A DNA stretch of 64,000 nt, from positions 1 through 64,000 of IMG/VR virus record IMGVR_UViG_3300029288_000092; one strand, given 5' to 3'. How positions within the stretch are numbered: position 1 is the stretch's first letter; each line of letters begins with the position of its first letter. Positions 9,797-52,609 of the stretch are shown one piece after another. The notes under the pieces are model-generated. The model did no database searches and had not been told where the DNA came from. It worked only from the letters and a program-made list of their open reading frames with translations. Source of the DNA: a virus. Lineage: Duplodnaviria > Caudoviricetes. The translations under genes were made by a program, and so were the position numbers.

Positions 9797-9810
9797 AATT
9801 TAAGCTAGTT

Positions 9811-9824
9811 ATTTGTTTTTGTTC
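9811..9824 (-). promoter_or_regulatory. Putative late promoter motif (GAACAAAAACAAAT) upstream of the tape-measure gene
   Basis: The same motif recurs at 3713-3725, 17167-17180, 23091-23106, 40714-40729, 50841-50856 and 56124-56139, always just upstream of minus-strand genes. Confidence 0.6.
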
Positions 9825-9849
9825 TGTGTTCTTTTTATGAGAAATATAA

Positions 9850-9860
9850 CTACATATATA
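9850..9860 (+). promoter_or_regulatory. Putative early promoter motif CTACATATATA
   Basis: Also at 17513, 56171 and 58972, with variants near 10709 and 50890, each upstream of plus-strand genes. Confidence 0.6.
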
Positions 9861-9929
9861 CTCTATTGAGTTTAAAAGTTATTCTTTTTTAAACTCATAT
9901 TTTTTCAAGTGAAAGGTGGTGAAGAATAA

Positions 9930-10193
9930 ATGAGTTTCAGAGAAACAGCAATAAAGCTGTTGAGTCAGATCCATGGAATCACATTAGATTCCGCAAGGAT
10001 CATGGCTGCGGCAGCCGTGGTTGCTAGTTTAATCAATGTGTTAAGCGTATATGCAACAGGAACACTTGCGTATGCGACAATCGCATTGATCATGTATCTC
10101 CTTTCTCTGTTAATCGATGGTATCAATGCATTGTTATCATCGACAACTGCGGAATCTTTTCCGCAGTTCGAGGAGGAGGCCATGTCAACTTGA
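9930..10193 (+). CDS. Small membrane protein (two predicted TM helices)
   Basis: 87 aa with two hydrophobic segments; AAGGTGG RBS; follows the TACATATATA motif. Confidence 0.65.
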   Translation: MSFRETAIKLLSQIHGITLDSARIMAAAAVVASLINVLSVYATGTLAYATIALIMYLLSLLIDGINALLSSTTAESFPQFEEEAMST

Positions 10194-10520
10194 TATGATC
10201 TAGGATCATATCAACTTCTTTCCAGTTTAATACTGGATGACAAAGAGTGGGAATGGTTATATAACCACTATAAATAAAAATGACCCGTTGTCAGGTGGCG
10301 TTAGCACTGCGAAGAATAAACTTCGTTATCAAATTCGTATGAGCAAACATACGATACCAAAATATGCACTCGTCCGGTAGGGGGTACGAGTTTAAAAAAG
10401 ACCCCCCAACCTTTTGTCCCGTCTTAGTTGACGGGTTGTTGCTTACCCCGAGCAAGCGTAAAACAACAATGGGATTTCGGGAAAGGGAAGTTCCCTACCA
10501 ACTTCCCTTTCCAACCACAC
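10190..10520 (+). ncRNA. Candidate large structured non-coding RNA (family not identified)
   Basis: GC-richer intergenic region with at least 8 hairpins, a long-range stem (~10239-10251 with ~10405-10418), and complementary loops GGTAGGG (10376-10382) / CCCTACC (10493-10499). Strand inferred from the flanking plus-strand genes. Confidence 0.6.
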
Positions 10521-10540
10521 AAAATATCACAGGAGGGAAA

Positions 10541-10675
10541 ATGAAAGAATTCACACTGGTAAATGTACTAAAAGAAATAAAACAAGAAGCGAAATCAAAA
10601 GCTATAGCATTATTGATTGTGGCAGGAGTTGCCACAGTTATCGAATATTTTTTCGGGGATGAAGAAGAATTTTAA
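10541..10675 (+). CDS. Small single-TM protein (44 aa)
   Basis: Likely true start is ATG 10541 after AGGAGGG: MKEFTLVNVLKEIKQEAKSKAIALLIVAGVATVIEYFFGDEEEF. Followed by a hairpin and T-run at ~10661-10697. Confidence 0.7.
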   Translation: MKEFTLVNVLKEIKQEAKSKAIALLIVAGVATVIEYFFGDEEEF

Positions 10676-10765
10676 ATTCTTCTTCTTTCTTTTTTTGTTT
10701 TAAAATAATACATATATTAATTTAATGAAGTCCAATTTTTTATTTTATTTTTTAGGAGGGTTTTT

Positions 10766-11053
10766 ATGGTAGGAGAAAAGGAAACAATCACAAAAGAAGT
10801 TTTTGACCTGTTGAAAGATCCAAAAACCAACAGACTCAAACTCAGCAAAGTGAGAGAAGCCCTGGTGAATATTGCCAGGGAAGACGTGCTAGAAAGATAC
10901 TACTCTTTCAACAACATCGACATTGACAGAGTGAACGGTGTTGCTGAAGAGATTGCAAAGAAGTATCATGAGATGAATCCGGATATTGACCAGATCGAAG
11001 TTGCAAAGAAGATCGTGGATGACTTTTGCAACAATGAGTTTGGTTTGAGTTAA
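10766..11053 (+). CDS. Hypothetical protein
   Basis: 95 aa; GGAGG RBS; upstream TACATATATT motif; downstream terminator. Confidence 0.75.
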   Translation: MVGEKETITKEVFDLLKDPKTNRLKLSKVREALVNIAREDVLERYYSFNNIDIDRVNGVAEEIAKKYHEMNPDIDQIEVAKKIVDDFCNNEFGLS

Positions 11054-11060
11054 AAAAATA

Positions 11061-11084
11061 TATGGGCTTTAAGCCCATTTTTTT
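11061..11084 (+). terminator. Intrinsic terminator
   Basis: ATGGGCT-TTA-AGCCCAT followed by a T-run. Confidence 0.7.
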
Positions 11085-11110
11085 CTAATTTAAAAACAAG
11101 GAGTTAACAA

Positions 11111-11902
11111 ATGGTTGCTGGAAAAAACAAAATTATAGGAAAGCTTAAGAATTTCAAAAGATATTACACCGCAATGTCAATAGATACCAAAATAAATATA
11201 TTGGATAAAATGTTAGATTTAACAATGAAAAGAATAAATGATCATATGAAAAAACAAAATCATGTTTCAAAGCATATTATTTTCTCTGATGATATAGCAT
11301 CAAAAGTAATATTGAAAAAATTAACATTGATTGATGAAAAAATAATGTGCAATATTTTAGGAAAAGGTATTAATAGTCCGGACATAACAAATCCAATCAT
11401 GTATCTAAAAAAACATTTCAGAAATATATGGGGAACATTTGAATATACAATATCAAATTCAGATATTGAAGAATCAGAAAAGTTTTTAAAAGATTCTAAA
11501 TTTGGCGCATCTGGCAGCATACTATCACAATACTATAATATATTCAAAAAAATAAGTGAAAAAAAATATATTCAACATATAATAATTTGTGATTTTTCAA
11601 AAGAATTATTTGGTGGATGTGATTATCATAAAAACAAAAATGCAGAAGTTTATGAAAATATAATAAAAAATAGCATACCGTCATATATAGAATCAATCGA
11701 TTCAGTTTCAACTTATTTTGGATTAACTGTTTGGTTTCCTTATCTTGGAGTTGACGTATTAAGAGAAATTGAAAATTTCACAATGGATCAATTGTTTCAT
11801 GATGGAGTAGGAGAATATCCTATAAGAAGAATTGCAAAAGATATAAATGTTCCAGGTGAAATTAAAATTGAAGAAAAAGAAGTTATTAACTTGGTGTGTT
11901 AA
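11111..11902 (+). CDS. Hypothetical protein
   Basis: 263 aa ORF with AGGAG RBS; no motif recognised. Confidence 0.7.
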   Translation: MVAGKNKIIGKLKNFKRYYTAMSIDTKINILDKMLDLTMKRINDHMKKQNHVSKHIIFSDDIASKVILKKLTLIDEKIMCNILGKGINSPDITNPIMYLKKHFRNIWGTFEYTISNSDIEESEKFLKDSKFGASGSILSQYYNIFKKISEKKYIQHIIICDFSKELFGGCDYHKNKNAEVYENIIKNSIPSYIESIDSVSTYFGLTVWFPYLGVDVLREIENFTMDQLFHDGVGEYPIRRIAKDINVPGEIKIEEKEVINLVC

Positions 11903-12702: not shown

Positions 12703-15700
12703 TTATCCTTCTAGAGCAGAAAGTCTCTGCTCAAGACAACTAATGCATGCCATCATTTCTTTTATCTTGGCGATATTAAGGACTGACAGCATCTGATAGG
12801 ATACCGTCTCTGCTTGACATTGGTCATCACAAACGACAAACTGTGGATAGTAGCAATTTAATTCTTCGGCGATTAAACCTACTGACTGCTGTTCAGAAAT
12901 ACAGTCGTTAACACAGCCATAATAGGATCGCGGGTTAATACAAGAATAGTTACTTAGATCTAAATTTGCATCTTCTATACATGTTTTATACCGACAGGAT
13001 GATGTAAATCGTTTTAAAGCTCCTCCAGAATACCAATGCACTGGTGTCCCAGATGTGGTAGGTTCAACTCCCATGAAAGGAACACAAAAACTTCCGTCAC
13101 TCTTAACCGCCATAGTATTACACCCGTTGGTGTTATATAATGCAAGTGTACTCGTTGCTGAGTCTATTGACCCAGCTTTAACGTATAGCCCGTACCCACT
13201 AGTATTTGAATTACACATAATTGCCATGTATGCAGCAATATTTTCCAAAACCTCGAATTTATAGGCAGGAGCAGTAGTCCCAATGCCTACACATCCCTTT
13301 CGCACAGTCATGGTAGTATCCATTGCTCCGCAACATAATGAAAGGATTCGAACAGCGCCGTGCTCTGCTCCGGCGGTATTATTCATTATACATGCAGAAA
13401 TCTGCCCATATGTTTGGTCAACAGAACCAGAATCCCTCATAATAAAGTCAATACACTGTGCACTTCCGGCAGAAGTACATTGATTATACATTGCCATACT
13501 GGTTCCGTAGACAGTTAAAGAACCGTATGAACAAGTAGTGCCAACACTAGTATTTCCAGAAGAATTGACAGCGAGGTCCACTGTGGATTCATTCCTAGAA
13601 AATGCAAACTGACTACCGGCTAGATTCATAGGGATATAAGCGCTTGTGAATCTATCATAACTAATAATTGGATATATGCTGGCTGGACTAATCTCAATTC
13701 CCGCATTTCCACCATTTGAGACAACAAACTGTCTAGATGGATTGGTTATGCCAACACCTACTTTTCCATCTTGTAACATTACCATCTGCTGACAAGCAAC
13801 ACTTGTGTTTCCTATAAAATGGAATACTTTATCATCAGCATTAGCATCAGATGTAACTTTAAGAGCAGTCGCTGCAGATCCTACTATTCCACACACGTCA
13901 AGTGTGGCGGCTGGAGACGAGGTGTTAACGCCAACATTTCCACCTTGGCTCACGGTAAGTCTTCTAACCCATCCACCAGTAGCTGTTGACATATGAAGGT
14001 CATGATTAGTAGCATCGACAAACACAGAAGTCCAGGCACTTGCACCATCTCGTAAAAGTATGTGTCCATAATTCACAGAGGGTGCATCGTTTATGTCCAG
14101 TTTTGCAGCAGGAGTTGCCGTCCCGATGCCCACTTTACCAACAGAATCTACTGACATAAATGTTGACCAAGCTGTGCTATTTGTGAATTTGGCTACATTC
14201 CCGCTGGAATACCAACCCCATATAAGTTTTGTTTCTGAATCTCTGTCTTCAAAATAATTTCCCCCGGTCACACCAGAAGATAAGGATGCTCCAATTGTTT
14301 CCAGTATATAACCAGTTCTTGGGGTGGATGTGCCGATTCCAACTTTTCCTATATTATCCACGTATAAATCTGGTGGTCCTTGCGCGCCAAAAACAGCTGC
14401 TCCCGTGGTAATCCCAACACCATCATAGCCGCTCAACAATAATACATTTCCGCCAGTGGTTCCTGTAGATGTCCCTCTCCACGCACCGACATAGGAAGAT
14501 GCTGTCCCCGCGTCTCCAAACGCTATACCACCTGTTGCGGTTGCTTTAATTGCACCATTGACTTCCAAATTTACTCCGGGAGTTGATGTGCCGATGCCGA
14601 CATTGCCATAGTTTGTGAAGTGCATCCTGGTCTGTAGGACTCCATCATTATCAGTTACTCTGATTTGGAACGGATAATTGGCACTACCGGCTCGATATGA
14701 TTTCAAGGCAGCAGTCGTGTAGGTGTTAGCTGTGTCAAAAAGATTATATGCCAACTGTACACCAGTATCATCCGTGGACCCACCAACATTAGTTAAAAGT
14801 AGCGGTGTTGTCGTAGACCCTGCTGATGTATCAACCACCTCAAGTTTCTTTGTAGGGTTTTCCGTCCCGATGCCGACATTGCCATCTGAATCAATCCTTA
14901 CTCTTTCAGCCATAGCCCCTGCACCGTGTGTTCTTGTTGCTAATGCAATCGCTGTTCCATATTCTCCATCTACTGCGTTCTCTTTCAAGAAAGAAATTCC
15001 TGAACCTGTTGTGTATGATCCACCGCTTGTATAGATAAACTTCTGGACAATACCTGATGCAGGATTCGCATTATAAGCATCGGTTGATGTTATGTAAATT
15101 TGTGTTGCTTGCGTAGTTCCCAATATGTCTGCTGCGCCGACAATTTCTAAATTATTTGTGGGCGAATCCGTCCCGATGCCGACATTGCCGCCATTAGGAT
15201 TGATGGCTAGCGTCCTTCCTGATACATTTGCTATTCCGGCCTCGGCTCTAGTCTGCGTCTGCAGTACAATGCCCCCAGCGCCAGTGTTGTGCTCGCTGAT
15301 TTTCAGCTGCTGTGCTGCTGCGATAATTTCGATGGTTGCCAAATGCACATTCCCGGCATCGACATGCAGCGTCCCTTCTGGCGCAGCCGTCCCAATGCCA
15401 ACATTTCCACCCAAAGGCTGGACTATCAAGTCTGCTGTGCCTGAAATTGTTGAGTTAATGCCTTGTATTGTTGGTTTCCCCGTTGTGCCTGACCCGAGTG
15501 ATACATATTCGTTTGACCCGCTTCTAGCCATCACAGCGTAATTTCCAGCTGCCGGAGCAGTAGAACGCAGACCATCACCAACCACGTCTAGAGAATATAC
15601 TGGGGATGATGTTCCAATGCCAACAAAACCGTCGTTATGTAAAACTAGCTGATTTGCATTCGCAGCTGTAGCCGAATAAGTAGACAAAACTAGATTGGTT

Positions 15701-16686
15701 GGAACATAGGTTCCAGTCACACCATCCTGGACCGCGATTATTTCTGCACCATATTGTTCTGCAGGAGTAGCAGTAGCTCCCAAGAATTGGATGTTTCCTA
15801 AAGCTGTTCCATCAGTTGTTTGTGCAAGTGTGCCTATAGTGTTAGATAACGACTTGGACATCATCAAGACAGGAAACTTTGTAGCTGTCGATGTTGAGTA
15901 TCCTCTTATGCCTGCAATTGCCCAGTCGTTACTTTTCGTGATTGTTAAGTTATCTCCGGGGGCTGTCGTCCCTATACCGACATTACCAGAACCAAGCATA
16001 GTAGCAACAACAGAGTTGGCTATAGTTTGTCCAGCTTTGCGTACTCTGAAAGTCATACTTCCAGTTTCAGAACCATCGGTTGTTACTGTTTGATTAGAAT
16101 AGATAGTTCCATATACTTCTTCATTATTCGAAGCGTCTCTTCCAATGAATTCTACTCTTCCAACCTCGCTGGCAGAAGTAGAATTTGATGATAAATTTAA
16201 AATACCTCGTTTATAAGCTACATTGCCGCCCCTGATATCAAGAGTGGCATTATCATTAGTTGAACTAATAAGCCCACTAGAAACCACATGTAAAACAGTT
16301 TCCGGAGCAGAGGTGCCAATACCAACTGAGCAACTGGTACAAATATATCCGCCAGAAATGCCCCACACACTGTTAGGATTAGTTACAGGAACCCAGTTAG
16401 TTCCGTTATAAGAAAGAATACAACCAGAAACTTGACCAGTTGTATCTACATTACCAAGATCATCAAGAACAGATCCAGTTTTGCTAACATCTACCCAAGC
16501 GTGATTATGAGATGCAGCTGCAAAATCAGTTGGATCACACCCACACAATGAATCAGCATCCACATCTGATAAATTAATAATATTTGTCCCATCAGTTATA
16601 CAACTAGAAGGAATAAATAAAATATCAGTATCTATAATTCCAGCAGGTTTACCATCGTTTAAAACTAATGGTTTTTTATTAGCCAT
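12703..16686 (-). CDS. Long fibre protein with GNVGIGT repeats and C-terminal intramolecular chaperone (peptidase S74)
   Basis: About 13 G(N/K)VGIGT-type repeats; C-terminal TSSCRYKTCI...GLIAEE...VSY..L...LEQRL S74 signature; Cys-rich termini. Confidence 0.85.
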   Translation of the reverse strand: MANKKPLVLNDGKPAGIIDTDILFIPSSCITDGTNIINLSDVDADSLCGCDPTDFAAASHNHAWVDVSKTGSVLDDLGNVDTTGQVSGCILSYNGTNWVPVTNPNSVWGISGGYICTSCSVGIGTSAPETVLHVVSSGLISSTNDNATLDIRGGNVAYKRGILNLSSNSTSASEVGRVEFIGRDASNNEEVYGTIYSNQTVTTDGSETGSMTFRVRKAGQTIANSVVATMLGSGNVGIGTTAPGDNLTITKSNDWAIAGIRGYSTSTATKFPVLMMSKSLSNTIGTLAQTTDGTALGNIQFLGATATPAEQYGAEIIAVQDGVTGTYVPTNLVLSTYSATAANANQLVLHNDGFVGIGTSSPVYSLDVVGDGLRSTAPAAGNYAVMARSGSNEYVSLGSGTTGKPTIQGINSTISGTADLIVQPLGGNVGIGTAAPEGTLHVDAGNVHLATIEIIAAAQQLKISEHNTGAGGIVLQTQTRAEAGIANVSGRTLAINPNGGNVGIGTDSPTNNLEIVGAADILGTTQATQIYITSTDAYNANPASGIVQKFIYTSGGSYTTGSGISFLKENAVDGEYGTAIALATRTHGAGAMAERVRIDSDGNVGIGTENPTKKLEVVDTSAGSTTTPLLLTNVGGSTDDTGVQLAYNLFDTANTYTTAALKSYRAGSANYPFQIRVTDNDGVLQTRMHFTNYGNVGIGTSTPGVNLEVNGAIKATATGGIAFGDAGTASSYVGAWRGTSTGTTGGNVLLLSGYDGVGITTGAAVFGAQGPPDLYVDNIGKVGIGTSTPRTGYILETIGASLSSGVTGGNYFEDRDSETKLIWGWYSSGNVAKFTNSTAWSTFMSVDSVGKVGIGTATPAAKLDINDAPSVNYGHILLRDGASAWTSVFVDATNHDLHMSTATGGWVRRLTVSQGGNVGVNTSSPAATLDVCGIVGSAATALKVTSDANADDKVFHFIGNTSVACQQMVMLQDGKVGVGITNPSRQFVVSNGGNAGIEISPASIYPIISYDRFTSAYIPMNLAGSQFAFSRNESTVDLAVNSSGNTSVGTTCSYGSLTVYGTSMAMYNQCTSAGSAQCIDFIMRDSGSVDQTYGQISACIMNNTAGAEHGAVRILSLCCGAMDTTMTVRKGCVGIGTTAPAYKFEVLENIAAYMAIMCNSNTSGYGLYVKAGSIDSATSTLALYNTNGCNTMAVKSDGSFCVPFMGVEPTTSGTPVHWYSGGALKRFTSSCRYKTCIEDANLDLSNYSCINPRSYYGCVNDCISEQQSVGLIAEELNCYYPQFVVCDDQCQAETVSYQMLSVLNIAKIKEMMACISCLEQRLSALEG

Positions 16687-27138: not shown

Positions 27139-27903
27139 TTAAATAGTTTCCATCATTAGTCCCTGATAAAAGCCTTCCAGATGATTCTTAAAATAAAAAG
27201 ATCTATTTATATCCATTGTCTTGAAATTTATTTTATCTGGTTGTTTAATTTTAATTTTGTCAGTATTCAATATAAATAAATATGATTCATCATCCTGTGG
27301 TATAGCAAATAATTTCCAGTTATCACAATTAAAATAATCTTTTCTCATAATATTTAATGTTTTTGATATCACATTCAATTTTAAAGTTAATATTTTTTTA
27401 GAATATTTACCAACAAATTCTTCTAACCCAATTGTTTTTTGTGGTATTCCTTTTATAATAACTTTATTATCAACGAACATCATGTAGGCTTGCTTTCTAG
27501 TATATGATCTTATAATGACATCGAATTTTTCTCTCAATTCTGGTTGGAATTCTAGATTATCTTTTTCTATAAATTTTTTTATTGCAAGACCATCTCTCTC
27601 CACCATTATAATATCATCAATCAATATATTATTTAAATTGACAAAATTGGTTATTATTTTTTTAGTGAATGACTGACAAAGGGTTAATAAATTTCTATCT
27701 TTAAATATTTCTCTTCCAATATACATGTTTCTTTCTAATTTGTTAGAAAAGGCCGGAACCTGGATTCCAACCTTTTCCAATATTCTTGGATAACATTCTT
27801 TTACATCATAAAAAAATATATCTCTTGTTATGAACGGTTGATTTTCATTATAAAAAAAATCACCAAAATTCATATTATATTTACTCCTTGGAAGTTTCCT
27901 CAA
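27139..27903 (-). CDS. Family B DNA polymerase-like polypeptide (split-polymerase piece)
   Basis: YDVKECYP (motif A-like), ERDG (motif C-like) and IIKG in only 254 aa; split PolBs are known in jumbo phages. Start is GTG after AGGAG or an internal ATG. Confidence 0.55.
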   Translation of the reverse strand: MRKLPRSKYNMNFGDFFYNENQPFITRDIFFYDVKECYPRILEKVGIQVPAFSNKLERNMYIGREIFKDRNLLTLCQSFTKKIITNFVNLNNILIDDIIMVERDGLAIKKFIEKDNLEFQPELREKFDVIIRSYTRKQAYMMFVDNKVIIKGIPQKTIGLEEFVGKYSKKILTLKLNVISKTLNIMRKDYFNCDNWKLFAIPQDDESYLFILNTDKIKIKQPDKINFKTMDINRSFYFKNHLEGFYQGLMMETI

Positions 27904-28933
27904 TAGTATTTAATTCTATTTCTTCTGATTTCAATTCAACACTTTTAGATTCCAATGTTTTGTTTTCTTCATTTTGAATTTGTGCTGGATCAATTTTATT
28001 AAGATTAAAATGTTCACATATTTTTTCAGTTAATTTTTCTACATTAAAAGCCTTCATACATTTATAATTATATTTGCATTTCCATCCCGGAATAGGTGCA
28101 TTTATAATTCCATTGCATGGGGATTCATCACATTCTGAATTTCTAACATGTAAAACTCCAGGATACTGATACCCAAGAGCATTAGCATCAGTCCTACCCC
28201 ATACAACAAAAGCAGGTTTTCTGAATGCAGCTGCCATATGATGTCCGCAACTATCAATTCCTAAAAATCCATCTGCCATTGCTATAGTTGCCATCCAATA
28301 TCTAAAATGCAATTGTTCTTTTGTTAATAGAGTATTCTTTTGAACATTAACCACTGGCTGATCTGCATCTTTCATAATTAGCATTACGCATTTATCACTA
28401 ATTTTATTCATCAATTCATTAAATAATAAAATATTTTCTCTTCCACTTGGAAGAAAAACAGAACTACTTTCTTCTTTTTGCATTCTGCCAACATATTGAA
28501 CAATTAATATTGGTAGTCCATTGGTTTGAGTTTTAATATCCAATAATTTCTTGTGCGCAACAGAAATCAATTCATCATCCAAATATATTTCTGGAAAATA
28601 ATTTCCATCAAATTCTATTTGCCATGCTTCACAAAATGATTCTGTTAAATGTTTTCCATCGTGTCTATATGAATCAAGATGATATGGATTTTCAATTAAC
28701 AGTGTTGATTTTTTTGCATAATCTTCATACATATGTCTGTATTCATTAAATCTCAATGTCCTATAGACATGTGGATTTAAATCATAAACTTCTGGCCATC
28801 CGGATAAAACTATTATTTTTTTATCTGGATATGCTTTCTTTAAACATCTAACTGCTGCTGTCGAGGCAATAACCTTACCTAAACCACCGTCAATACTAAC
28901 AATTAAATATTCAGTATTTTTAGAAATATTCAT
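27881..28933 (-). CDS. Glycosyltransferase family 9 (heptosyltransferase-like)
   Basis: GGLGKVIAST..R.LKK.YP..KI, NPHV, and ADGFLGIDSC.HHMAAAF.KP..VVWG motifs; C-terminal C..C....C...C cluster. Confidence 0.85.
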   Translation of the reverse strand: MNISKNTEYLIVSIDGGLGKVIASTAAVRCLKKAYPDKKIIVLSGWPEVYDLNPHVYRTLRFNEYRHMYEDYAKKSTLLIENPYHLDSYRHDGKHLTESFCEAWQIEFDGNYFPEIYLDDELISVAHKKLLDIKTQTNGLPILIVQYVGRMQKEESSSVFLPSGRENILLFNELMNKISDKCVMLIMKDADQPVVNVQKNTLLTKEQLHFRYWMATIAMADGFLGIDSCGHHMAAAFRKPAFVVWGRTDANALGYQYPGVLHVRNSECDESPCNGIINAPIPGWKCKYNYKCMKAFNVEKLTEKICEHFNLNKIDPAQIQNEENKTLESKSVELKSEEIELNTIEETSKE

Positions 28934-28976
28934 TTAAAATCTCCTCCTATTTTTTGTTTGTTGAACCTCCCCACGG

Positions 28977-30029
28977 CTAAAGCCGGGGGATTCCTGTAGA
29001 GAGGCTCGTTCCGAGCCCAAGTTTAAGAACCTGCTTGGCGGAGTTTATATCTCTGTCATGCTGTGCCCCACAAGCACTGCAGTTCCAAACTCTTACCGCA
29101 AGCCCACTCAATCCGGTGGGTCCGGTTAAGGATCCGCAGGATGAACAGGTCATGGTGGTTTGAAATGAGCTAACTGGAACTACCATTCTACCGCAGTTAC
29201 TGCCCTTGTAGGTGATAAAATCAATTAGTTGTTTTAAACCAGCTTCGGCGACTGACTTTCCGAATTTAGCAGCCATTCCTTTGAAGTTGTCGTCAGAATA
29301 GTATATGGTTGCATAGTTTTCTATAATCCATCGAGAAATCTTATGATTTCTATCTTTCCGTCTATTTGCTTGTCGTTCCTGTAATCTAGCAGCCAATTTC
29401 TTTCTTTTTCCTTTCTGCGCCTGGGCTAACCCGTGCGCGCCTTTCCGAAGTTCTCTCGGATTTTCTATCTTAGTGCCATCCGAAAGAGTTAGCAAAGTAG
29501 AGAATCCAGGATCAATTCCAATTGCGTTGGATGTCTTCTTAACAGGGAATGTATGGTTCGTATCCAGCCATAAACATAGATACCAACCAGATGATTTCTT
29601 AATGATTCTTCCACATTTAATATCAGCGGGTGGCAATTCTTGTTTATGATATCTAATTTTTCCCAATCCAAGAATACTAATTTTGTTAGCAACTGGGGCT
29701 TTGAATTTGTCCGGAAACGGAATAGAATTAAGTTTATTCCTCATTCCTTTAAGATGAGGCTTCTTAGCAATCTTTTTGAAACATCTGGTCCAAGCATTAT
29801 GAACCTGCACCAGAATTCCTTGTATAATATGTGATGGAATTCCAATCTTTTTCCCATGACCGGCAAGCAGGTTCTGGAATGACATTTTGGAAAAGAATAT
29901 TTTGTTCTGGGCATTGCATTCAATTTTTCGTAAACCCCAATTATATACCCCAGTTAGGATATTGAGCCAATCCAGGAGTTGTGCTTCCTGTTTTTTAGTT
30001 GGTTTGAGTTTAAGTGTACGAACTATCAT
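28977..30029 (-). CDS. tnpB: TnpB RNA-guided nuclease homolog, RuvC-II Glu apparently absent
   Basis: N-terminal LKLKPTKKQ, RuvC-I GIDPG, Zn ribbon CSSC/CSAC, RuvC-III HDRDINSA. YYSDDNF stands where the canonical protein has IIEDLNV. Confidence 0.9.
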   Translation of the reverse strand: MIVRTLKLKPTKKQEAQLLDWLNILTGVYNWGLRKIECNAQNKIFFSKMSFQNLLAGHGKKIGIPSHIIQGILVQVHNAWTRCFKKIAKKPHLKGMRNKLNSIPFPDKFKAPVANKISILGLGKIRYHKQELPPADIKCGRIIKKSSGWYLCLWLDTNHTFPVKKTSNAIGIDPGFSTLLTLSDGTKIENPRELRKGAHGLAQAQKGKRKKLAARLQERQANRRKDRNHKISRWIIENYATIYYSDDNFKGMAAKFGKSVAEAGLKQLIDFITYKGSNCGRMVVPVSSFQTTMTCSSCGSLTGPTGLSGLAVRVWNCSACGAQHDRDINSAKQVLKLGLGTSLSTGIPRL

Positions 30030-52072: not shown

Positions 52073-52094
52073 TTTGTGAATCAGATTGGAGGAA

Positions 52095-52556
52095 AAAATC
52101 TCTAAAATCCAAGATTTTTTTCTCAGTGTATGAAGGGAGAAATTATATGACACGACCGTAGTTAAGTTAATTTGTGTTTATTTATTAAGATTTTATAGAG
52201 ATTATTTATTTGCTATGTCCTAACATAGCTATTTCAATTGCTTATTTTTACGGACTCATATCCTTTTAAGTAGTGTCTATGGGTTTTGTAAAAATAAGTT
52301 GTTATGACGACCGAAGGTCATAATAATATCCTGAAAATTGAAATAGGCCCGTTCCAGCCGAGACAAATGGAATACAATCATGTGAGTTTTAGACGAGGTA
52401 CTTATCACATGAATATACACTATTGGGTTTTAAGTGTATATGGTTGCACCTTGTAAGTGATGTTTTATTGGTTAATATTAGAGTACAAAATGACACTTGC
52501 CGTTATTCATGGATGCATTTATATTAGCTACCCATGAAGATTTATAATGGTGCAAG
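52095..52556 (+). ncRNA. Candidate large structured non-coding RNA (family not identified)
   Basis: Nested stems: 52097-109/52189-203, 52212-229, 52229-239/52336-346, 52240-260/52278-299, 52302-323, 52378-385/52405-412, 52413-421/52433-441, 52444-450/52549-555, 52506-512/52532-538. No ORF of 60 aa or more. Confidence 0.6.
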
Positions 52557-52609
52557 GAGAAATTTTCCAAAATATGTATTTAATTTTAAATTGATTGACA
52601 GGAGTTTTA

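Follow-up and report, generated by a model that had tools for sequence, protein, structure and literature searches.

The question raised by this locus is what a 347-nt stretch, rich in hairpins and free of open reading frames, represents between two small genes of a giant phage. An earlier note on this DNA had proposed a tertiary-folded RNA (ribozyme, scaffold or decoy), expressed early between two small membrane-protein genes. We find that the non-coding character, the dense structure, the gene context and a recurrent promoter-like motif upstream are all supported, and that the discreteness of the RNA is not.

Setting of the locus

The window, that is the whole stretch of DNA analysed (64,000 nt), covers the first 64 kb of an IMG/VR virus record of 119,310 nt with a CheckV completeness of 38%. 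The genome is low in GC (about 0.26-0.40 across most 2-kb windows, genome about 0.32); values up to 0.46 are seen at 14001-16000, within a 1327-aa ORF (12703-16686). A plus-strand island (9930-11902) is surrounded by minus-strand structural genes, with a tape-measure-like gene (TMP, 1569 aa) on the opposite strand directly upstream, and contains orf87, the 347-nt gap, orf44, orf95 and orf263. The features that frame the question are the following:

9930-10193, plus strand: orf87, 87 aa, a small membrane protein, truly coding
10194-10540, plus strand: structured non-coding spacer, 347 nt in the window and 345 nt in the L003 strain, GC 0.42
10531-10537, plus strand: Shine-Dalgarno sequence AGGAGGG of orf44, properly spaced from the ATG and predicted to pair with the pyrimidine stretch 10215-10220 or with 9900-9906
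10541-10675, plus strand: orf44, 44 aa, predicted small single-pass membrane protein with one hydrophobic segment, a hot spot of strain divergence (13%)

Searches of Pfam and PHROGs placed none of the island genes (orf87, orf44, orf95, orf263) in a family, and orf87, orf44 and orf95 were orphans in searches of 5.8 billion proteins and 1.84 billion representatives. Strain differences in orf87 fall at third codon positions in 8/8 cases (seven in a strain unitig, one in L003), and the two genes flanking the gap read as real small membrane-protein genes. The strong Shine-Dalgarno sequence with a three-codon reading frame (ATG-TCA-ACT-TGA), which had been placed directly before the RNA, proved to be the in-frame C-terminus of orf87 (...EEEAMST, then stop).

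Three other assemblies carry the locus or its neighbourhood: L003, a contig of an NCBI MAG that is 98.4% identical and has the same layout; a Logan contig with the same gene order, a gap of 345 nt and an orf44 identical to that of L003; and L002/L004, a distant relative in which the tape-measure protein is 47% identical and the island is replaced by unrelated small genes. Since the layout and the gap length (347, 345 and 345 nt in the three assemblies) recur in two other assemblies, the locus is not an assembly artefact. Near-identical DNA was also present in three landfill/groundwater metagenomes, in short contigs none of which spanned the gap; the sequencing runs listed with this DNA included no RNA run, a result that has no bearing on expression.

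The gap is non-coding and folds strongly

Stop codons occur in all six frames of the gap, with 5-6 in each plus-strand frame, and two separate 1-nt deletions in L003 shift every frame; the gap is non-coding in both known strains. Coding through an alternative genetic code was rejected, as TAA, TAG and TGA are mixed in every plus-strand frame.

The structured region has a minimum free energy of -108.8 kcal/mol against -75.2 +/- 5.3 for 100 dinucleotide shuffles (z -6.4), and the exact gap gives z -7.6, so the fold is significant. The minus strand of the structured region is equally foldable (z -6.2), and over the gap it folds slightly better than the plus strand (-110 vs -106 kcal/mol). When fold energy was regressed on GC over 702 strand-windows of 340 nt covering the 119-kb genome, the minus strand of the structured region ranked 9th and the plus strand 25th, placing both in the top 1-3%. 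Within the gap, local 150-nt z-scores range from -0.4 to -3.2 and are weaker than in orf87. The GC of the gap is close to that of the flanking island genes (0.41-0.43), unlike that of true spacers (0.23-0.27), and is the highest among the long gaps of the genome, a point that would also suit a stand-alone RNA.

Gene-like GC and weak local z-scores would agree with a gap that has no specific function and is a relic, for instance former coding sequence that has decayed or a junction at which promoter/stem-loop gene cassettes were shuffled. Such a relic would have the GC and the hairpin habit of the island genes around it, and only its terminator or stabiliser hairpins would work. The replacement of the island by unrelated genes in the nearest relative and the orphan status of the whole island point the same way. 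We nevertheless judge this reading rather unlikely: all stems are perfect despite the many stops in each plus-strand frame, and the length of the gap is kept across the three assemblies.

Other long ORF-free gaps are found in the window (52073-52594) and farther along the genome (102409-102863, 103677-104315 and 117952-118408). Most of these are structured too (z -2 to -6, 25 shuffles), with sequences unlike that of the 10194-10540 gap, and part of the fold signal described here may therefore be a genome-wide habit and not a specific device.

Helices of the gap

The hairpins listed in the earlier note were all found in place, both by direct reading and with hairpin and fold tools, and the long-range stem said to close a multiloop is present in the minimum-energy fold. 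The helices are:

10190-10214, plus strand: hairpin 1, 11-bp stem with a 3-nt loop, overlapping the orf87 stop; terminator-like, with a weak U-tail (CUUCUUUCC)
10221-10237, plus strand: hairpin TCCAGT/ACTGGA
10254-10267, plus strand: palindrome
10284-10473, plus strand: multiloop domain closed by CCCGUUGU (10284-10291) and ACAAUGGG (10466-10473), enclosing the hairpins 10309-10326, 10335-10354, 10368-10411, 10418-10435 and 10436-10467
10310-10325, plus strand: hairpin CGAAG/CTTCG
10335-10354, plus strand: hairpin TCGTATG/CATACGA
10368-10391, plus strand: hairpin ACTCGT/ACGAGT
10368-10411, plus strand: G-run GGUAGGGGG with competing partners, lying in the loop of ACUCGU/ACGAGU or paired with CCCCCCAACC (10402-10411)
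10418-10435, plus strand: hairpin CCCGTC/GACGGG, with the only compensatory change (C-G to U-A, 10420/10433) and a loop change at 10426
In the gap, plus strand: hairpin TTGTT/AACAA
10480-10512, plus strand: 13-bp perfect hairpin with a 7-nt loop CCCUACC (10493-10499) and no U-tail, 29 nt before the orf44 start

The multiloop architecture is identical in both strains, in the minimum-energy fold as in the RNAalifold consensus. A terminator scan flagged 10190-10214 and 10418-10435 as terminator-like with weak tails, and hairpin 1 is built like the terminator at 10661-10685 (11 bp, 3-nt loop). Pairing of the G-run with CCCCCCAACC gives a further terminator-like hairpin (10376-10411) with UUUU directly after it; in L003 this U-tract shrinks from 4 to 3 U, a point against the cis-acting reading given below.

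As a minor observation, the segment 10480-10517 (13-bp helix, 7-nt loop, then AACCA) is loosely like a tRNA acceptor/T-arm minihelix. Set against the minihelix that is a minimal RNase P substrate (12 bp, 7-nt loop, NCCA), it is offset by one nucleotide and departs from the T-loop consensus, and the likeness does no more than hint at a possible processing site.

Comparison of the two strains

The gap of L003 differs from that of the window at 8 places: 10282 G>A, one C lost from a C6 run, one T lost from a T4 run, 10420 C>T, 10433 G>A, 10426 A>G, 10519 A>G and 10528 C>T. The double change at 10420/10433 turns a C-G pair of CCCGUC/GACGGG into U-A, and thus supports this hairpin over the alternative pairing with 10283-10288. 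The suggestion that GACCCGT (about 10282) serves as an alternative partner of ACGGGTT is contradicted accordingly, as in L003 the 10433 G>A change is compensated at 10420, in the local hairpin, and not at 10285. The five remaining single changes all lie at positions unpaired in the spacer-only fold, in which 55% of positions are paired. RNAalifold on the window and L003 gave 96 pairs, of which 0 were broken and 1 was compensatory, and the two gaps have the same architecture and the same fold energy, so that the structure is kept in both strains. The comparative support comes from this single 98%-identical strain, the only variant that the searches described below brought to light.

Divergence along the locus is mosaic, with 0-0.7% in the tape-measure gene, orf87 and orf95 and 13% in orf44, where the substitutions are conservative. 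The gap stands at 2.3% against 0-0.4% in orf87 and orf95, and this faster change is a further point for a relic. In the divergent tract 10402-10683, the limits of which were inferred from the same data and are uncertain, 7/140 nt of the spacer have changed as against 10/45 third positions of orf44 (Fisher p=0.0015). The block 10434-10518, which takes in the 13-bp hairpin and the 3' side of the closing stem, has 0/85 changes (p=1e-5), although, given the uncertain tract limits, it could be a recombination mosaic. Divergence significantly below that of adjacent synonymous sites, a compensatory change and the absence of any broken stem in L003 all weigh against a relic; the conservation of the 3' domain relative to neighbouring synonymous sites would equally be expected of a stand-alone RNA. 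Overall, these limited comparative data appear to fit selection on the structure of the gap.

Over 10541-10675 and 11111-11902, the comparison with L003 gives 13% for orf44 and 5% for orf263, with 0% in orf95, orf102 and the intergenic spacers. Such a mosaic suggests that particular genes of the island have recombined or undergone diversifying change.

Loop-loop complementarity

The loop CCCTACC (10493-10499) of the 13-bp hairpin is, as had been noticed, the exact reverse complement of GGTAGGG (10376-10382). The further claim that GGTAGGG is displayed in the loop of the 10368-10391 hairpin holds only in part: the complementary sequence is there, but in the minimum-energy fold it is paired with the C-run 10402-10411, this local pairing having P about 0.5-0.75. 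Releasing the G-run from its local partner costs +7.8 kcal/mol, against -11.4 kcal/mol gained from the 7-bp loop-loop duplex; the predicted kissing loop is, in this energy model, plausible. If both G-run stems formed together, they would make an H-type pseudoknot. Both kissing-loop partners are invariant in the one available variant.

A full-loop complement within 150 nt was found for 7/97 genomic hairpins with 7-nt loops, the other six loops being AT-rich, and the empirical chance of a loop match is p roughly 0.01-0.07. The G-run has several C-rich partners available (CCCCCCAACC, UUACCCC and CCCUACC), which makes the 7-nt match less surprising.

These data bear directly on the idea of a stand-alone tertiary-folded non-coding RNA. 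It would consist of the 10284-10291/10466-10473 domain and the 13-bp hairpin, held by the 7-bp loop-loop contact or the pseudoknot; it would arise by cleavage of the early transcript or from a promoter that went unrecognised, and its role in trans would be that of a scaffold, decoy or ribozyme. The closed multi-helix architecture with paired 5' and 3' ends and the exact complementarity of CCCUACC to GGUAGGG, with its gain exceeding its cost, argue for such an RNA, and giant Pseudomonas phages are reported to produce small RNAs from intergenic regions and 5' UTRs (PMC11512511). The local partner of the G-run, its further C-rich partners and the empirical chance of the match argue against it, and we consider a stand-alone RNA unlikely, if a serious alternative. 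Its most specific form, in which 10284-10515 would be a discrete, trans-acting RNA of a new family released from a hairpin-dense transcript, seems to us doubtful; the same doubt attaches to its details, namely a ColE1-like 7-bp contact or H-type pseudoknot and a role as decoy or scaffold directed at a host factor that binds or senses RNA.

Searches for families and homologues

A search of the whole window against Rfam gave 0 matches at gathering thresholds and thus no known family for the gap. A permissive scan of both strands of 9800-10800 (4227 models, E up to 10) gave a best E of 1.1, with scores far below gathering; the Rfam 15 models scanned included ROOL, GOLLD, OLE, HEARO, riboswitches, ribozymes, C4/CI RNA, 6S and T-box. 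ARAGORN found no tRNA or tmRNA gene in the window.

A group I intron was rejected, as there was no Intron_gpI match, no R/S-type core sequences (AGACUA/UAGUC) could be seen by eye, and there are no exons to join, orf87 ending at its own stop and orf44 having its own AGGAGGG and ATG. An omega RNA of TnpB/IscB was likewise rejected: the candidate tnpB ORFs (two adjacent, 350 aa, 27881-30029) lie about 17 kb away, and HEARO gave no match.

No second copy of the gap, or similarity to it, was found elsewhere in the 119-kb genome, and blastn against GenBank phages gave no match. Scans of IMG/VR with orf87, orf263 and TMP returned nothing, alignment of TMP yielding only the distant relative L002/L004, and the whole 30.9-kb record of the relative gave chance matches only. 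Scans of JGI metagenomes (with a 21-mer of the terminal hairpin and with orf95) and of GTDB genomes (with TMP) also returned nothing. A pattern scan of IMG/VR with GGTAGGGGG..TTCCCTACCAA had one match, L005, which was rejected as a chance match in unrelated coding sequence. On these searches, the predicted RNA of the gap belongs to no described family and is an orphan among the structured non-coding segments of phage transcripts. The lack of a homologue in the collections searched and of an Rfam match is a further point against a stand-alone RNA.

Candidate transcription signals and the unit 9867-10695

Three features outside the gap delimit a candidate transcription unit:

9848-9860 (at 9851), plus strand: candidate early-type promoter motif (A/C)TACATATAT(A/T), recurrent, with a T-run upstream
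9867-9897, plus strand: 5' stem-loop with an 11-bp perfect stem, at the predicted transcript start
10661-10695, plus strand: intrinsic-terminator-like hairpin (11 bp, 3-nt loop, T-run) that closes the unit

The motif (A/C)TACATATAT(A/T) with its upstream T-run (about 12 nt apart) is also found at 10709, 17514, 56172 and 58973, and precedes plus-strand small-gene islands, often with a stem-loop immediately after it. Near the unit it occurs at 9851 and next only at 10709, before orf95. The same motif is present at genome positions 71458 (minus strand), 102662 and 116231. L002 has two copies on its minus strand (about 655 and 125), one of them in the homologous place. We regard the motif as a candidate early promoter of this phage lineage. 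Minus-strand operons are headed by another, late-type motif, GAACAAAAATAAA, a copy of which stands at 9812-9824 in front of the tape-measure gene. Neither of these promoter-like motifs occurs in the gap or on its minus strand, and no terminator follows the 13-bp hairpin 10480-10512. A T4-type late promoter at TATAAATA (10269) was rejected, this motif not being enriched in the genome (42 seen vs 46 expected).

The unit is enriched in hairpins: 5/24 of the perfect hairpins of the genome with stems of at least 10 bp sit in 9867-10685, that is in 0.7% of its length. The stop codons of both ORFs lie inside 11-bp, 3-nt-loop hairpins, and a long hairpin is placed about 30 nt before each start (9867-9897 for orf87, 10480-10512 for orf44). 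From these signals we infer that 9867-10695 is transcribed from the plus strand as one RNA, with respect to strand, ends and co-transcription alike. The want of a promoter motif in the gap and of a terminator after the 13-bp hairpin speaks against a stand-alone RNA.

The minus strand of the gap carries a sigma-70-like hexamer pair (10294-10267) and a terminator-like site (10296-10283), although promoter-like and terminator-like consensus matches occur at chance frequency (8 found, 7.1 expected). These sites would agree with a type I toxin-antitoxin-like or antisense system, in which heavy mRNA folding, together with an RNA transcribed from the opposite strand of the gap, would keep orf44 or orf87 silent. 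That this strand folds at least as well as the plus strand, and that orf44 and orf87 are both predicted membrane ORFs, small and hydrophobic as a type I toxin would be, would also agree with such a system. The chance frequency of the sites, the absence of a phage promoter motif on this strand, the lack of a known family or relative for orf87 and orf44 (Pfam, PHROGs, large protein databases) and the length of orf87 (87 aa), long for a type I toxin, would not, and we hold it to be very improbable.

Farther along the genome, beyond the window, a 13-bp hairpin arm AAAAAGATCTAGG occurs twice (98687-98716 and 107502-107531), with a T-run after each copy, and these hairpins look like a repeated terminator module. 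The windows spanning 106761-107440 likewise rank with the most strongly structured in this genome.

Structure extends into orf87

Among 340-nt windows of the 119-kb genome, 9861-10200, comprising the 5' leader and orf87, is the most structured (z -9.1; 4.6 sd below the genome trend after adjustment for GC). Its energy is -125 kcal/mol on the plus strand vs -94.5 on the minus strand, with 13 G-U pairs against 3, and both differences point to structure at the RNA level, on the plus strand. Helices of 10-17 bp lie inside orf87. Seven synonymous-site SNPs shift the energy of the orf87 window to -130.1 kcal/mol, a value reached by 1.1% of random sets of seven third-position transitions (-118.6 +/- 5.2). 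From this modelling, RNA-level selection seems to reach into the coding region of orf87.

Discreteness is thus the part of the original proposal that lacks support: the gap contains no phage promoter motif, and strong structure runs on through orf87, which is the more structured of the two, so that the gap is not a bounded island. Both ribosome-binding sites (orf87 and orf44) are predicted to be paired in the folded mRNA, that of orf44 with P about 0.9 in the fold model; an extremely folded mRNA with both sites paired would again agree with a toxin-antitoxin system. The fold-back of the 5' leader on the Shine-Dalgarno sequence was rejected as a distinctive feature, as it ranks 838/39,760 among genomic sites, about 2% of which are as good.

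A proposed cis-acting structure within a hairpin-rich mRNA

Our favoured reading, held tentatively, is that the gap may be a cis-acting intercistronic RNA structure, concerned with stability, processing or control of orf44, within one plus-strand unit of about 820 nt. The spacer is probably part of a longer, hairpin-rich mRNA and not a stand-alone ribozyme. We regard the feature in the gap as real and as probably under selection, and the unit as unusually dense in hairpins.

In the mechanism that we propose for this cis-acting structure, the unit (9867-10695) would be ordered as candidate promoter, 5' stem-loop, orf87, spacer, orf44 and terminator, and the whole of it would be selected to fold into many long helices. 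The helices of the spacer would make the transcript compact and nuclease-resistant; partial termination or pausing could occur at hairpin 1 and at the G-run/C-run hairpin with its U-tract; the 13-bp hairpin might, after processing or cleavage, become a protective 5'-proximal stem-loop of orf44; and the long-range pairing might gate access to the orf44 ribosome-binding site.

Likeness to known systems and significance

By analogy, the closest counterparts of the gap element would be the stabiliser hairpins found between cistrons and at the 5' and 3' ends of phage early mRNAs; the fold-back mRNAs of small membrane toxins would resemble it to a lesser degree. With the processing and stabiliser hairpins of phage early mRNAs (T7 RNase III sites, 5'/3' protective stem-loops) and the promoter-early-stem-loop cassettes of T4 type it shares the placing of hairpins between small early-type cistrons, a stem-loop about 30 nt before each start, a hairpin over each stop, and a cassette-like unit bounded by a promoter motif and a terminator. 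It differs from early-mRNA processing hairpins in having about 10 helices in a closed multiloop of roughly 330 nt, and not a single hairpin, and no long irregular duplex of RNase III type was identified in the gap region.

The type I mRNAs of the hok/sok kind are alike in their small hydrophobic ORF(s), in an mRNA folded throughout, coding region included, and in predicted long-range 5'-3' pairing over the ribosome-binding sites, which here is not statistically distinctive; they are unlike in that the locus yielded no antisense RNA gene and is unrelated to them in sequence. Fully paired 7-nt loops occur in ColE1 RNA I/RNA II. The likeness lies in a 7-nt hairpin loop fully complementary to another loop, with plausible energetics, whereas the contact here would be intramolecular and the partner loop is found only in a suboptimal conformer. 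ROOL and GOLLD are alike as multi-helix non-coding RNAs, here a candidate in a phage genome; the present element, at about 330 nt, is smaller, is limited to a single phage lineage and has no match to them or to other Rfam families.

If functional, the gap would be a structured RNA element of orphan status in an uncultured giant phage of landfill/groundwater, whose genome appears to have several long structured gaps; since the basis is two near-identical strains and their sequence, it remains a candidate. More unusual is that a whole early-type unit of 820 nt, its coding part included, seems to be selected for RNA helices, and this is relevant to the question of how the early transcripts of giant phages are stabilised, processed or hidden.

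A last observation concerns the distant relative. At L002 1-160 (minus strand), a second TACATATATA motif is followed by at least 110 nt of GC-richer, ORF-free sequence up to the contig end, with an 11-bp hairpin GTTGAGGAAGG/CCTTCCTCAAC just before that end; the island genes upstream are unrelated ones of 50 aa and 98 aa. This ORF-free stretch may be an analogous non-coding RNA.
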